Source: an uncultured delta proteobacterium
Lineage (GTDB): Bacteria > Desulfobacterota > Binatia > UBA9968
Direction: 5' to 3'
Length of the DNA: 64,000 nucleotides
Assembly: GCA_963745835.1 (NCBI GenBank)
Contig: CAVUZH010000013.1
Location: 544,001 to 608,000 of the forward strand
Shown here: positions 18,494-37,597 of the stretch, one piece after another
Layout: each line of letters begins with the position of its first letter
Position numbering within the stretch: position 1 is the first letter of the stretch
Program-made: the position numbers and the translations under genes
The notes under the pieces: model-generated
Told to the model about the DNA's origin: nothing
The model's database searches: none
The model's input: only the letters and a program-made list of their open reading frames with translations

Positions 18494-19330
18494 ATGTCGA
18501 TCTTTAAGACCACCGGTCTTGTCGCCGGCCATTACGAGTGCCGCTCCCTGGCGGAAACTCTGCCGGTCTTCACCGATCTATTGGCCATGGAGGTCGTCGA
18601 GCGGACGGCGAGCATAGCCATACTCAAGCACCCCAACACGGAGTGGCGCCTGATCGTACATGAAGGGGGACCCGACGCGCCGGAAAAGAGTTTCGACAAT
18701 CACTACGGCTTCCGCGTCGCCCACCATGGGGAGGTGGAAGCAGCCTGGAAACACCTCGAAGCCAACAAAGAGAAATACGGCCTCAGCAAGATCACTAAGC
18801 CGCAGAGCGCGCATTTCGCTTACTCGATCTACTTTCGCGAGCCCGGCGGCAACCACTTGGAAATCGAATATTACAATCCCGGCGGCGCGCAGCATGGCCG
18901 CGCCCACACCGCCGGCCATTGGAACAAGCCGCTCGCCGACGAGCGATTGTCCCAGCGCGGCTACCTGCCGCAAGCGTTCACTCACGGCACGCTGCAGTGC
19001 GACGACATCGAGCGCAGCCGGCAATTTTACACCGAGGTTCTCGGACTCGAGATCCTGGCGGGATTCAACAACGCCCAGTATATCAAGCACGCGGCGGCGC
19101 CCTGGTACATCGTCGTCTTGAAACGCAGCCCGCGGCAATATCTCGCGCCGGTAAACCGCTTCACTCTGCAAATGGATTCAGCCGCAGCAGTCGAGCAAGC
19201 GCACCGCGAATTCTCGATCAACGGCGCGACCGCCGGCATTACAGAACTCGGCAAGCTCGACGCCATTGACGGCAAAACCAGTTTTATCTTCAGCGACCCG
19301 GATAGGAACTGGTGGGAGCTAAACGCCTAA
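18494..19330 (+). CDS. Two-domain VOC/glyoxalase-family protein
   Basis: HYGFRV, SIYFREPGGNHLEIE, HGTL..FY.EVLGLE and FSDPDRNWWEL. Confidence 0.85.
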   Translation: MSIFKTTGLVAGHYECRSLAETLPVFTDLLAMEVVERTASIAILKHPNTEWRLIVHEGGPDAPEKSFDNHYGFRVAHHGEVEAAWKHLEANKEKYGLSKITKPQSAHFAYSIYFREPGGNHLEIEYYNPGGAQHGRAHTAGHWNKPLADERLSQRGYLPQAFTHGTLQCDDIERSRQFYTEVLGLEILAGFNNAQYIKHAAAPWYIVVLKRSPRQYLAPVNRFTLQMDSAAAVEQAHREFSINGATAGITELGKLDAIDGKTSFIFSDPDRNWWELNA

Positions 19331-30120: not shown

Positions 30121-31137
30121 TCACTGCTTATAAAGGGCTTCGATGAATCCGCTCTCTTCGAACTCCTTGATGAAGCGCAACTCGACGAAGTCCGTGGGAC
30201 GCGCCTCTTTGGCTCTGTCGCCCAGCGACTCCAAAACCGCTTTAATCCCTTCTAAAGAAGGATATTGATTGCGCGGCAGCTTGTCGTCGGTGATCGACAC
30301 ATCATAGCTTTTCTCGAGCACGGCAGTGTCCTTGAAGCCGCCCATGAGCTGCATGAAGACTTTCATGCCGGTTTTTCTGTCCCGCTTCATCATGTGCACC
30401 GCTTCCACTTGCGACTTCACATAGCGGCGCACGATGTCCGGATGCTCCTTGATGAAGCGCCGGGTCGTCACCGGCGCGACGTTTTGAAACGGCAGCGCGC
30501 TCACGTCCGCCAAGATCCTGAAGCCCTCCTTCTCAGCGGCAAAGATCGTCGGCGGGTTGAGCGACGTCGCCTGCACCCGTCCGGTGCGCAGCGCCGCCAG
30601 GCGCTCCGGCGTTCCACCCACCGCGACAATGGAAACATCTTTGGCAGGATTGAGCCCGAGCTTTCTCACGGCCAATTGCGTCGCCGTGTACGAGCCGCCG
30701 GAAAGACCCGCGGCGCCGATAATCGCGCCTTTGAGCTGTTCCGCCGACTTGATGCTCGGATGTCCCACCAGCCAGTAATCGAGCCCGGTGTAGCCGCCCG
30801 CCACATAGACGGCTCCCGAGCCGCCGAGATTGCTTTGCAAAACCGCCGGCGCCGCCGCTTGAATCAATCCCACTTCGCCTGAAATGAGTGCCATCGTCGA
30901 CACCGCGGCCTGAGCGCGAATCACGGTGACGTCGAGACCGTTCCTGGCAAATATCCCCGCCTCTTTCGCTAAAACCACCGGGAGATTGACCGGCCCCACA
31001 CCGGTATAGCTGACGTTAAGCTTCACCGGCTGTGCACGGCTCTCAGAAAGAAAAACGGCAGAACCAAAGCACGTGAAAAACACTGCGAACATCACGCGCG
31101 TCCATTTCAACGCGCTGCTTAAAGCAGAACTCTCCAT
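30121..31137 (-). CDS. NitT/TauT-family ABC solute-binding protein
   Basis: AKEAGIFARNGLDV, GLNPAKDVSIV..GG..ERLAAL and YPSLEGIK; likely start MESSA at 31137. Confidence 0.88.
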   Translation of the reverse strand: MESSALSSALKWTRVMFAVFFTCFGSAVFLSESRAQPVKLNVSYTGVGPVNLPVVLAKEAGIFARNGLDVTVIRAQAAVSTMALISGEVGLIQAAAPAVLQSNLGGSGAVYVAGGYTGLDYWLVGHPSIKSAEQLKGAIIGAAGLSGGSYTATQLAVRKLGLNPAKDVSIVAVGGTPERLAALRTGRVQATSLNPPTIFAAEKEGFRILADVSALPFQNVAPVTTRRFIKEHPDIVRRYVKSQVEAVHMMKRDRKTGMKVFMQLMGGFKDTAVLEKSYDVSITDDKLPRNQYPSLEGIKAVLESLGDRAKEARPTDFVELRFIKEFEESGFIEALYKQ

Positions 31138-31419
31138 TCGTCGCGACCCTCGGTTCCTTGCATTCAATTGTGATTGCCGATCATGACGGGGAACAGTTGT
31201 TCCAGGATGACTAGCAGCACCGCCAGCTAACTGGAAATGGGCACCGGCGTCAATAGCCGCTGCCCATCGCCGCGCGGCCACGGGTGCAACGCGTTGAAGA
31301 AAGCAGAAATGTTGATTTTGGAAAGCGCAAGGTCGATAACGGTACGTCGAAGAACGTAGCTGGCAGGAGCACCTGAGAAGGTCAGCGATCCGGGGTCACT
31401 CATGAAAAGCTTGTCAAGG

Positions 31420-31640
31420 TCTCGTTTAGATGCACCTCTTCACGGGAGGCGTGGGGTTAGTCTAATCACCCACACTCCCGTTGTTTGCGACCAGAGTTCT
31501 GTTCGGTCTCGGTCGACCAATCGGTCAGTCACTCATGCGTGCTCTTCGGCACATTATTGAATTCGACTCTGGTCTCCTAATCAAATCTTCGGATCTCCGG
31601 CTTAGGCCGGGACCATGACCCCAGGAGGATGACCAGAGAC
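31420..31640 (-). ncRNA. Bridge/seek RNA of the IS1111-type element (ends approximate)
   Basis: Two stem-bounded internal loops whose guides match the flanking target (AAGATTTGA, GGGGTCA) and the element end (CATGAGTGA). Confidence 0.8.
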
Positions 31641-32690
31641 GTCGGTAACTTTTTTTCGCCCAGGTACAGCCATAAGTCGTTGCCGAGGTCTGTGACGCTT
31701 AAACGACTCACTTCGCTTGAGCATGGCGTAAATGACAGTGAGGATCTTTCGCGCTACCGCCACTTTCGCCGTGCTCCGACCGCGTCGTCGACTCACTCTG
31801 CGGTACACTTTCTGAAAGTTCGAATCCCCGTTGGCGGCATGGATGCTGATCTCTACCAAAATCCATCGCAGCCATCGTGAACCCTGTTTGGTGATCCTGC
31901 CGCTGTAGCTCTTGCTTCCCGAGCTATAGATACTGGGAACCAACCCGGCATACGAACACAATCGCTTGGCATCAGGAAAACGGTCAACCTCACCAATCTC
32001 ACTGAGGATTAACAGAGCCGAGTAGTAACTGATACCCGGAATACCCATCAACAGTTGAGCCTGTGGGTTTTCAGCCACCTCGGCCTTTATCGTTTTTGTG
32101 ATCTCTCCAATCGAAATCGCCAACGCCTCAGCGATCCGCAGATACCCATCAATCTCTAGGCGATAGCAAGCACGCACGGCTAGACTCTTCAGCCACTGCC
32201 GGGAGGATTTCCCCAAAATATCACTGAACGTGCAATCGATGCCGTTCTTGGTCAGCACCGCATGAATCTTGTTCTTGATGCCGACTCGTATCGATACCAG
32301 CGAGGCCCGGTAACGCAACAACTCTCGAATGTCACGAACCTCACGAGGTGGTATGTACGCTTTCGGGATGCCATCTAGACGTAGCAGTTCCGCTAAGGTC
32401 GTCGCATCAATGGTGTCGGTTTTGATGCGCGCCTCAGCAATCGCCCGGGTCTTAAGCGGGTGGGCCAGCACTACGTCAGGTGTGTACTGCTCGATACTTT
32501 CGTAGAGATACATCCAGTTGCCCCTAGCCTCCACCACCACCTGACTGCGCCGGTCCTGTTTAGAAAAATAACTTTCCAACGCCGCTTGAGTCACAGGTAC
32601 AGTAACCTTGCTGGTTGTCTTTCCCTGTCGATCTTTCTTTACCACCACGGCCTTGCGCTTCCCCAGGTCCACTCCTATATACTCTTTCAT
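31602..32690 (-). CDS. IS110-family DEDD recombinase/transposase
   Basis: YIGVDLGK, VVEA, KTDTIDA (D-E-D-D), SYAGLVPS..SSG (catalytic Ser region), ITKQGS..LR..L and A.VAVARK. Confidence 0.95.
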   Translation of the reverse strand: MKEYIGVDLGKRKAVVVKKDRQGKTTSKVTVPVTQAALESYFSKQDRRSQVVVEARGNWMYLYESIEQYTPDVVLAHPLKTRAIAEARIKTDTIDATTLAELLRLDGIPKAYIPPREVRDIRELLRYRASLVSIRVGIKNKIHAVLTKNGIDCTFSDILGKSSRQWLKSLAVRACYRLEIDGYLRIAEALAISIGEITKTIKAEVAENPQAQLLMGIPGISYYSALLILSEIGEVDRFPDAKRLCSYAGLVPSIYSSGSKSYSGRITKQGSRWLRWILVEISIHAANGDSNFQKVYRRVSRRRGRSTAKVAVARKILTVIYAMLKRSESFKRHRPRQRLMAVPGRKKVTDVSGHPPGVMVPA

Positions 32691-32934
32691 GCTGCACCTC
32701 CTTTAGGCTTAGGCGACTCCTCACAGAGTCAGCCTGGTATAATGTTGGTCCATTAGAGACCGTCACCGCCCAATTTGCGAGGTGCAGCTCACAACATCTG
32801 CTTTTCATTTAATCAAATCTTTTGTTGACAATTTAGGTCGTCGTTGGTCAGGCCTTTTACTTTTGATGTTCATCGTTCATGGGACAAGATTTCAAGTCAC
32901 CCCATACCTGCAGCGGCAGCAGCGACGAAATGGG

Positions 32935-34032
32935 TCAAGGGCTCGGAGTCACGACCTCAGCGTGGCTGGACTCGGACGCGGGGGCATGGACGTCGCGCAC
33001 GCTCGCCAAGTCATGGAAGGCCCGCCACCGAAAAATCGACCATCGACCGTACGCTCGGAGCAGAGCCAGTACTGTGCGACGACGCATCCGCGGTGGAAGA
33101 AAATGCAGTAAGGACCATGTCAGAAGGAGGTTCCAGGTCTTTCGCGTTAGCAGCGTTCGGGGATAAAGGCGGATACACTCCGCGAGCTTGCGTCCGGCCT
33201 TTCTGTGGGAATCGAGACCGGGCGTCCGGCTCAAATAGAGGAAGGCAACATATTGCTTCACGTTCGAAACGCTTTCCCTGCGTATGCGGACGGGAAGACT
33301 CGGAGTTTGACGGAACGCGTTGTCGCAAACCCGCAGGCAGCCTCGTTCGGCGCGCTCTGAATCGGCGGACATGGTCCTTTCCGAAATACGATAAAGAATC
33401 TGGTACCGCGGCACGAGCGCGAACGGCCAACGGGCCGCGACCCGCAAGCAAAAATCCCAATCCTGGGCCGAGACGATCGAAGCATCGAAGCCGCCGACGG
33501 CAACGGCGCAGCTTTTACGAACGAGGATATTGGAACCGCTCGCTATAAAGCAGTGCCGGAGAAGGTCCGAGTAGACGTACCCCTCGAAACGCGCGCCTTC
33601 TTTGGCAAAGAGGAAGTGCGACCGCTGATCTATGAACACGGTCCAGCTGTACGCTATGGCCGCCTCGGAACGTTGGCGTAAAGCTCGAAGCTGCAGCTCC
33701 AGTTTGTCTGACGTCCAGAGATCGTCCGCGTCGATGAACGAGATGAACTCGCCTAGGGATTTTTCGATTCCACGGTTGCGCGCCGCCGGGAGACCGGCGT
33801 TCGGATAGCTGAAGATCCGTAACCGCGGGTCCCGGACGGTTTGCAAGCGAGCCAGGGTACCGTCGGTCGAGCCGTCGTCGATAACGAGGATTTCGAAATC
33901 GGCAAACGTCTGACGGCGAATCGACCGGATCGTCTCGAGGATCGTGTCTTCGGCGTTATAGGCTGGGACAACCACGGAAACCGGCGCCCTGCCGCCATCC
34001 GGCCTCTCCGGGAACGCGCTTTGATTGATCAT
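32935..34032 (-). CDS. GT2-family glycosyltransferase
   Basis: VSVVVPAYN, IDDGSTD, ARNRG, FIDADD and QDWDF. Confidence 0.92.
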   Translation of the reverse strand: MINQSAFPERPDGGRAPVSVVVPAYNAEDTILETIRSIRRQTFADFEILVIDDGSTDGTLARLQTVRDPRLRIFSYPNAGLPAARNRGIEKSLGEFISFIDADDLWTSDKLELQLRALRQRSEAAIAYSWTVFIDQRSHFLFAKEGARFEGYVYSDLLRHCFIASGSNILVRKSCAVAVGGFDASIVSAQDWDFCLRVAARWPFALVPRYQILYRISERTMSADSERAERGCLRVCDNAFRQTPSLPVRIRRESVSNVKQYVAFLYLSRTPGLDSHRKAGRKLAECIRLYPRTLLTRKTWNLLLTWSLLHFLPPRMRRRTVLALLRAYGRWSIFRWRAFHDLASVRDVHAPASESSHAEVVTPSP

Positions 34033-37175: not shown

Positions 37176-37597
37176 ATGGCGGGACCCCTCCGACTTTCTG
37201 GTGCCATCTATCACCTCACCAGTCGCGGCAACGCACGTCAGAAAGTCTTTTTAGTGATACCGACCGAGAGCTATTTCTGAGTACTTTAGTCGGGGTTGTC
37301 AGCCGGTACGGTTGGATCTGCCACGCCTACTGGTTGAAGGCCAATCATTATCATCTGCTGATTGAGACACCCAAGGCCAATCTCTCCATCGGCATGCGCC
37401 AGCTCAATGGAATCTATACTCAAAGTTTTAATCGACGGCACAACAGGGTTGGGCATCTATTTCCAGGTCGTTTCAAAGCGATTCTGGTGGAAAGGGAATC
37501 CTACCTCCTGGAGCTCTGCCGCTACATCGTTCTTAATCCTTTACACGTGAAAGATCGGGCTATCGCTCAAAGTTGGAATCTAAAAAAGATGCGATAA
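37176..37597 (+). pseudogene. RAYT / Y1 HUH transposase, frameshifted and 3'-truncated
   Basis: GAIYHLTSRGNARQ, NHYHLL (HUH), FNRRH.RVGHLF.GRFK and RYIVLNP (catalytic Tyr); frameshift near 37250. Confidence 0.85.

Follow-up and report, generated by a model that had tools for sequence, protein, structure and literature searches.

A predicted RNA-guided insertion sequence of the IS1111 group with legible target and donor guides in an uncultured soil deltaproteobacterium

Can the site occupied by an insertion sequence, and the end by which it would be joined to a new one, be read from an RNA encoded in its own non-coding end? The question is raised by a locus in the DNA of an uncultured delta proteobacterium (GTDB lineage Desulfobacterota, Binatia, UBA9968; GenBank assembly GCA_963745835.1), within a stretch of 64,000 nucleotides (nt) that was analysed as a whole and is called the window below (contig CAVUZH010000013.1, positions 544,001 to 608,000 of the forward strand). 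Minus-strand positions 31396-32815 of the window most probably constitute an intact, RNA-guided insertion sequence of the IS1111 group of the IS110 family, about 1.42 kb in length and inserted at AAGATT-TGA-CCCC; the probability given to this reading, from sequence comparisons, is roughly 0.87. An initial annotation had decoded the guides of such an element at this locus. Its decoding proved right, and its interpretation is supported by the analysis reported here.

Boundaries, layout and recombinase

The element has no long terminal inverted repeats; a short core repeat is found at both junctions, and the same flanks recur in other contexts. The direct repeat, TGA, is exactly 3 nt long, because the neighbouring bases differ between its two copies. 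Subterminal inverted repeats of 9 bp (ATGAAAAGC / GCTTTTCAT) are separated from the core copies by 4 nt on the left and 3 nt on the right. Between the junctions, a short left end of 122 nt, provided with a good ribosome-binding site, is followed by a single uninterrupted open reading frame (ORF) for a protein of 362 amino acids (aa) and by a long non-coding right end (203 nt) downstream of this transposase gene, tnp (Table 1). On the minus strand both junctions agree base for base with those first annotated, and the target of about 13 nt around a TGA core resolves into 6 + 3 + 4 nt. The description of an intact element of IS1111 type likewise holds for the transposase family, the ORF, the ends and the layout. 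At the left junction TGA-TTAAATGAAAAGC is conserved among relatives, and at the other extremity 18 relatives show little or no variation in CTTGAC and the terminus.

A search of 90 genomes of the family with positions 30800-33400 revealed no orthologous empty site, and the boundaries therefore rest on the direct repeat, on the relatives and on the points at which contigs from other samples break off. These are Logan contigs from four runs (X5, X9, X10 and X15, the last being an RNA library), which show presence, not abundance or transcription; the parts that X9, X10 and X15 leave uncovered carry no meaning. Contigs stop at 31391-31395 with loose ends that disagree with one another (five in X5, six in X10 and three in X9), and other contigs stop at 32820-32821 (X9, X10 and X15). 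The shared sequence therefore reaches CCCC and AAGATT, and no further, in other contexts. In all, the match extends through 32820-32821 and 31392 in contigs from three other studies and one RNA library, and beyond these points the sequences differ; X5 also contains the window's own locus. The right flank of the element is matched at 94-95% by genomes G086 and G044, but only from position 31379 onward. This position, 13 nt past the target of the insertion sequence, is approximately where a variable junction lies, upstream of which all three genomes differ.

The protein encoded by the ORF matches the NCBIfam profile NF033542 ('IS110 family RNA-guided transposase') with 227.8 bits against a cut-off of 140, and it contains the Pfam domains PF01548 (N-terminal RuvC-like DEDD, E = 3.5e-20) and PF02371 (C-terminal Tnp, E = 6.4e-24). 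It also aligns to the solved transposase chains of IS621 and ISCro4 (E = 3.6e-15 and 7.4e-13; PDB entries 8wt6, for IS621, and 9t56), with GVDLG, VEARG, KTDTIDA and SSGS falling on IGIDTAK, IEATG, KTDTVDA and ESGS of IS621. The positions of the catalytic motifs given by this alignment are D8, E54, D92, D95 and S257-G258, which presumably correspond to the catalytic residues of IS621. Residues 249-258, GLVPSIYSSG, fit the motif GL-P----S(t)G that the passages on IS1111 transposases in Siddiquee et al. (2024; PMC11187229) give for this group. Among the plasmids of PLSDB, the closest proteins are at most 40.7% identical. The same genome (G000) has four more IS110-family genes, 26-35% identical (C22:70360-71343, C19:502659-503639, C15:11687-12679 and C5:169428-170261), one of them with two in-frame TAG codons, and two fragments elsewhere.

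As far as its sequence can tell, the layout of the element fits the IS1111 group by its ends, its subterminal repeats, its GL-P----SG motif and the order of its guides. In the sections of the published accounts that deal with this group, IS1111 elements are given a short left end and a long non-coding region downstream of tnp (PMC11187229), as well as subterminal inverted repeats of 7-17 bp and, for 93.0% of elements, a predicted right-end bridge RNA (Durrant et al., 2024; PMC11208160). Their seekRNAs are described as lying 3', with the guide complementary to the top strand placed 5' of the bottom-strand guide (PMC11187229).

Target and donor guides of the predicted RNA

The first internal loop of the predicted RNA (loop 1) would read the target. 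In its DNA form, it consists of GGGGTCA, the hairpin CCGGC-CTAA-GCCGG and AAGATTTGA, enclosed by stems CTCC.../...AGGAG, the outer stem being formed by CUCUGGUC-A-UCCU and AGGA-GACCAGAG. The 5' guide GGGGUCA is the complement of TGA-CCCC, the core with the right flank, and the 3' guide AAGAUUUGA is identical to AAGATT-TGA, the left flank with the core, so that the 7-nt and 9-nt matches to the two target halves were recovered as first read. The stop codon of the recombinase, TAA (31604-31602), sits in the apical loop of the loop-1 hairpin, and the 5' half of the loop is therefore coding; the overlap between target loop and gene noted in the initial annotation comprises the last 12 or so codons and the stop. 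When the 262-nt 3' end was simulated 200,000 times with a first-order Markov model, the 9-mer appeared 570 times and the 7-mer 2003 times, and both guide words in the right order within 80 nt appeared three times.

The fold of this region was recovered as well. The 265-nt 3' strand folds better than all 200 shuffled versions (z = -3.46), and the 72-nt loop-1 module (about 31638-31566) folds as a single stem, internal loop and hairpin (z = -3.54). The same helices were found by RNAalifold on an alignment, A1, that brings together 18 related right ends drawn from genomes of the family and from metagenome contigs. When a structure of 28 pairs was held fixed, 95.2% of cells were paired across these 18 relatives, compared with 29-44% in a control in which partners were slid by 1-3 columns. 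Nine pairs have changed on both sides, against 3.2 +/- 1.1 in shuffles, and none of 500 shuffles scored as high. All nine fall within helices 1-3 of the target loop (20 pairs), which is supported by this covariation; the loop-2 hairpin and the hairpin that follows it are nearly invariant in A1 and uninformative in this respect. The guide GGGGUCA is present in 17 of the 18 aligned RNAs, and locus L003 combines a guide cuGGGUCA with the flank CCCA.

The second loop (loop 2) is a candidate donor loop and reads gucgaAUUCAAUaau-GUGC-cgaaga-GCAC-g-CAUGAGUGA-cu, or, as DNA, GTGC-cgaaga-GCAC followed by CATGAGTGA. Its 3' arm CAUGAGUGA is identical to the core together with the 6 nt that precede it at the right end, which bears out the 9-nt donor match described initially. 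Identity between this arm and the element's own terminus extends over at least 8 nt in 16 of the 18 relatives in A1, the two exceptions, L003 and L090, being degenerate copies. In L035, ATGAGTGA has become ATAGGTGA in both arm and terminus, a single double compensatory event that concerns two adjacent bases. The window owes its ninth matching nucleotide to a C at 31537 on the minus strand, where a G, leaving 8 nt, is found in most relatives and in the contigs from X5, X10 and X15. The relevant passages of Siddiquee et al. suggest that recognition of the ends in IS1111 may differ from that in IS110 (PMC11187229), and here the 9-bp subterminal repeat may carry that role.

One further feature of the RNA is a three-way complementarity. 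The word CUCUGGUC occurs twice, at 31638-31631 and 31496-31489, and both occurrences are complementary to GACCAGAG (31574-31567). In 14 of 17 sequences the three strands are consistently in the T/A/T or the C/G/C state, the other three sequences keeping wobble pairs, and the strands change together between two sub-clades (A1 pairs 16/84 and 84/171), a pattern that reflects a small number of independent events. When the 98-nt donor part is folded in isolation, the downstream CUCUGGUC forms a basal stem that closes the donor loop; this alternative helix has only one covarying pair. That the RNA holds a built-in switch, in which GACCAGAG closes the target loop or the donor loop and not both, is quite improbable; the pairing may be a switch, a processing signal or a coincidence. 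A switch, if true, would bear on the origin of the long and short forms of seekRNA and on the loading of the two recombinase dimers.

How such an RNA might be made and used is inferred from the family. No sigma-70-like promoter or intrinsic terminator was found in a scan of positions 31300-32950. When the ends are joined in silico, TTGACA stands 16 nt before TTAAAT, or 17 nt before TAAATG, as the initial annotation had it, and CTTGAC and the left-end TTAAAT are conserved in relatives. Contigs from the RNA library X15 cover 31513-32206 and 32694-32820; being contigs, they are no evidence of transcription. In the model set out in PMC11187229, tnp and a long RNA are co-transcribed from the junction promoter and the transcript is then processed, and the same may hold here. 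The element would excise as a circle whose joined ends bring TTGACA (right) to 16 nt from TTAAAT (left) and form a promoter; this would drive the recombinase mRNA, the 3' part of which would be, or be processed into, the bridge or seek RNA. In the first internal loop, the partner of GGGGUCA would be the top strand of TGA-CCCC, and that of AAGAUUUGA the bottom strand of AAGATT-TGA. In the second, CAUGAGUGA would pair with the bottom strand of the right end and core at the circle junction, while recognition of the left end probably falls mainly to the protein, by way of the 9-bp subterminal repeat. The DEDD/Ser recombinase would then exchange strands at the TGA core. Present activity, called probable in the initial annotation, can only be conjectured from these features.

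Table 1. Features of the element and of its two junctions (positions in the window)
Feature	Position	Strand	Remarks
Left target half AAGATT, outside the element	32816-32821	-	Identical to the 3' guide; contigs from other samples diverge after 32820-32821
Left core copy TGA	32813-32815	-	Direct repeat
Left end, 122 nt	32691-32812	-	TTAA extension 32812-32809; ATGAAAAGC 32808-32800; -10-like TTAAAT 32812-32807; ribosome-binding site aaggagg
Recombinase gene (362 aa), IS110-family RNA-guided transposase	31602-32690	-	Profile, structure-sequence alignment, motifs
Target-binding loop module (predicted)	31567-31638	-	Outer stem 31638-31626 / 31578-31567; 5' guide 31622-31616; inner hairpin 31614-31591; 3' guide 31589-31581
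Donor-binding loop candidate	31527-31566	-	AUUCAAU 31562-31556; hairpin 31552-31539; 3' arm CAUGAGUGA 31537-31529
Conserved hairpin GACC-GAUU-GGUC (31526-31515) and downstream CUCUGGUC (31496-31489)	31489-31526	-	
Right terminus	31399-31417	-	-35 TTGACA 31417-31412; GCTTTTCAT 31410-31402; extension GAG 31401-31399
Right core copy TGA	31396-31398	-	TGA kept in most distinct right ends (see text)
Right target half CCCC, outside the element	31392-31395	-	Mostly CCCC or CCCT in relatives (see text); contigs from other samples diverge at 31391-31395

Relatives, their flanks and competing explanations

A DNA match of some kind is present in 25 of the 90 family genomes, and a search at the level of the order returned nothing beyond the family (10 of 123 genomes at E <= 1e-30). 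A metagenome scan yielded 20 loci, ten of them with a left junction and a target loop (one with only 5 nt of left flank), and a scan of genome contigs yielded three, one of which is the same place as L013. In genome G088, a deletion derivative at 96-97% (L037, G088:C28:59686-60287) joins positions 1-259 to 1085-1426, so that both ends and the whole RNA are kept and most of tnp is lost; it lies between AAGACT-TGA, which has one U-G wobble with the guide, and TGA-CCCCC. The full copy of the same genome (L013, identical with L069; 96%) has TGA-CCCC on the right and CATACT-TGA-C on the left, a poor match to its own AAGAUU guide. The initial annotation had made its decoding depend on the ends and flanks of other copies. 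These agree with it in the case of AAGACT/CCCC at L037 and of the contigs with AAGATT/CCCC, and disagree at the left flank CATACT of L013/L069. The window's own genome also holds a 79% related, internally deleted mini-element (L002, on contig C5 at about 18594-18953) and two right-end relics. The mini-element, about 340 bp long and non-autonomous, sits at CATGCC-TGA ... TGA-CACT and keeps the left end, the 3' arm of the donor loop and the right end, without the target loop.

On a near-constant scaffold, the metagenome relatives carry five classes of left guide, AAGAUU, AAUACU, AAGUGCC, AAAGUCU and AAAAUCU. The AAGAUU guide goes with the flanks AAGATT (window), AAGACT (L037) and ..AGACT (L077, where only 5 nt are visible), and the AAUACU guide of L072 with TATACT. 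Eight elements with a GUGCC guide and a visible left flank end in ACC (four), GCC (three) or GTC (one), CC thus being present in seven. Guide and flank agree at position -1 in 12 of 12 cases. Across the wider clade, the left guide and its flank appear to covary in part: flanks track the guides at the level of classes and at position -1, and the expectation of guide-target covariation held to that extent. Among 35 distinct right ends, TGA is found in 30 and the flank is CCCC in 15 and CCCT in 11, which together make 26, and either can pair with GGGG by Watson-Crick or G-U pairs. These right ends include L028, from the unpublished genome G019; no conclusion depends on it or on L049, from the unpublished genome G022.

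Several points weigh against the proposal of an intact element inserted at this site by RNA-guided recombination. The advantage of cognate guides is modest, with a mean contiguous pairing of 3.9 as opposed to 2.7 for non-cognate ones in 12 elements. Unless a U bulges out, four AAGACC flanks would pair better with the non-cognate AAGAUU (6-7) than with the GUGCC guide that belongs to them (3), and the 96% full copy L013/L069, with CATACT-TGA and an extra C, pairs with its guide over three contiguous positions beyond the core. It is in these cases that the covariation falls short. The right guide hardly varies, and hence there is almost no covariation on that side. The RNA, the circle and transposition are themselves predictions, and positions 31200-33000 have no Rfam match at E <= 1. 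The guides being known here from the DNA alone, the guide-like words might be chance matches or DNA remnants of earlier target duplications, for which the missing Rfam match would also speak. This is hardly credible, however, given that the joint chance is about 1.5e-5, that the words lie on the two strands of an internal loop with covarying closing helices, that different guide classes go with different flanks, and that arrangement and order are those described for the family in the corresponding passages of PMC11187229.

The donor side is weaker than the target side in its 5' arm, which, in the register first proposed, matches the donor through the core UCA only, as the initial annotation had itself recognised; seven of 18 relatives have U in place of the C of this UCA. 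An alternative register, with AUUCAAU set against the left-end ATTAAAT, leaves one mismatch in the window (6/7) and in 12 of the 18 relatives, and is perfect in four. Loop 1 alone might therefore be the guide, as a short seekRNA, with loop 2 serving as a protein-binding scaffold or processing element, its CAUGAGUGA match unused for the donor, and the protein reading the ends through the subterminal repeats and the flanking target. What speaks for this, besides the 5' arm without a convincing donor match, is that loop 2 and the ends are almost invariant and covary little, and that, in the experiments on ISEc11 covered by PMC11187229, an RNA of 70-100 nt with target matches alone sufficed and the donor had to be flanked by the correct target. 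It is nevertheless unlikely in view of the 3' arm, whose identity with the element's own terminus and core spans 8 nt or more in 16 of 18 relatives, of the two adjacent bases changed in both arm and terminus of L035, and of the donor loops that Durrant et al. predict in IS1111 right ends (PMC11208160). The decoding may also be right and the copy nonetheless immobile in this genome, as a recently acquired or silenced single copy. The genome (7.28 Mb in 25 contigs) has only one full copy, its five perfect 13-mer target sites and 14 with one mismatch are unoccupied, no promoter-like site is found inside the element, the C at 31537 sets the window apart from most relatives and contigs, and most relatives in family genomes are transposase-less relics, transposase similarity being detected by tblastn in 6 of 30 loci. 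Against this stand the uninterrupted ORF with all catalytic motifs, the intact ends and loops, the lengthening of the donor match from 8 to 9 nt by the variant at 31537, and copies at 96-99% in different contexts (another genome and several metagenomes), which point to recent mobility of the lineage; immobility is accordingly rated as rather unlikely.

The transposase-less relatives form a group of their own. At least 18 loci in family genomes (L003, L005, L016-L019, L023-L026, L028-L031, L033, L036, L038 and L039) consist of a right end stopping at the core or a variant of it, with TGA in 14 of 18 and a right flank CCCN in 12 of 18, and some have complete loops; none of the 18 shows transposase similarity within at least 1500 nt upstream. 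Their 5' truncation points are ragged, those of L017 and L024 lying exactly at the 3' guide. The idea that such fragments are independently mobile RNA modules was rejected on account of the ragged 5' boundaries and of upstream flanks unlike the left target half, and they are treated as relics.

The target repeat and comparison with known systems

Elsewhere in the genome the 13-mer AAGATTTGACCCC has five exact occurrences, or 19 if up to one mismatch is allowed, compared with four for a reversed control, and the natural target of the element appears to be this short repeat, which resembles repetitive extragenic palindromes (REP). One inverted pair of 13-mer sites bounds a 330-aa ORF (C20:77545-78534) that encodes a Y1_Tnp or IS200-like transposase (PF01797) with a DnaA-C helix-turn-helix, and comparison of coordinates places 5 of the 19 sites next to this IS200-like gene or its relatives. 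In several flanks, the window's included, TCAAC lies about 3 nt upstream of AGATT and can form a small hairpin with the TTGA(C) of the site. The element may thus specialise on the terminal repeats of IS200-like Y1-transposase elements, which is more likely than the switch considered above and less novel: insertion in REP-like repeats is a known behaviour of the IS110 family, as indicated in parts of PMC12288879 and by titles cited in PMC11208160.

At G000:C20:77492-78541 (L054, about 1500-2545) and also at G000:C3:239825-241168, a Y1 gene lies between inverted motif copies, GGGGTCAAATCTTTAC ... GTAAAGATTTGACCC. The 330-aa Y1 protein has 19 tblastn matches in the genome, self, fragments and weak ones included, one of which is in the window at about 37244-37555. 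The site in the window is a solo motif. Apart from short words, the genome contains no repeat of its 123-nt left flank, and a REPIN-like pair at the window (GGGGTGACTTGAAATCTT ... AAGATTTGA-CCCC) was dropped on this ground. A second type of repeat, AAGTAGCCTGNCCCCTTTA with its complement, is found at L069 (1180-1240) and L005 (G000:C13, about 687 kb), where its neighbours are further remnants of IS200-like genes, and copies or relics of the present insertion-sequence family.

Among the known systems with which the element can be compared, IS621 has a core of 2 nt. By description, the element resembles ISEc11, ISKpn4, ISPa11 and ISPst6, which, in the portions of Siddiquee et al. (2024; PMC11187229) devoted to them, have a DEDD transposase with GL-P----SG, subterminal inverted repeats with short terminal extensions, a long non-coding region downstream of tnp, an RNA of stem and internal loop with the same order of guides and with matches that overlap at the core, and a promoter at the circle junction. 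The element is set apart from them by its 3-nt TGA core and its target AAGATT-TGA-CCCC, by the location of the end of the gene inside the target loop, and by a transposase of 362 aa where 330-350 aa are quoted for the family (PMC11187229). With IS621 and ISCro4, of the IS110 group, it shares the protein family and the two-loop logic of target and donor, as far as outlined in Durrant et al. (2024; PMC11208160). In IS621, however, the bridge RNA is described as lying in the left end upstream of the gene, with the order of guides reversed and very short subterminal repeats (PMC11208160; PMC11187229), whereas the RNA predicted here belongs to the right end and has a weak second donor arm. ISPpu9 and ISPpu10 of Pseudomonas putida are also IS110-family elements with a small-RNA module downstream of tnp and with extra copies of the RNA only; according to the relevant parts of PMC12288879, they are inserted in repetitive extragenic palindromes, and ISPpu10 has a hybrid junction promoter. 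In contrast to these, the transposase-less copies found here look like truncated relics, and neither their boundaries nor their flanks give evidence of an RNA module moving on its own.

The element is a good but ordinary example of a known RNA-guided IS110/IS1111 kind, and it leaves the picture of the family unchanged. Bridge- or seek-RNA recombinases are under development as programmable tools for DNA insertion, and any natural orthologue lends itself to immediate testing if its guides for target and donor, its core and its ends are legible in the sequence. Its assets are a clean target loop of 7 + 9 nt, a 3-nt TGA core, the natural deletion derivative L037, which keeps the ends and the RNA, and a surrounding clade in which a nearly unchanging scaffold carries at least five different left guides. 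For the biology of this uncultured soil deltaproteobacterial lineage, it adds a predicted RNA-guided insertion sequence that appears to be aimed at the repeat bounding IS200-like (REP-type) transposase genes.

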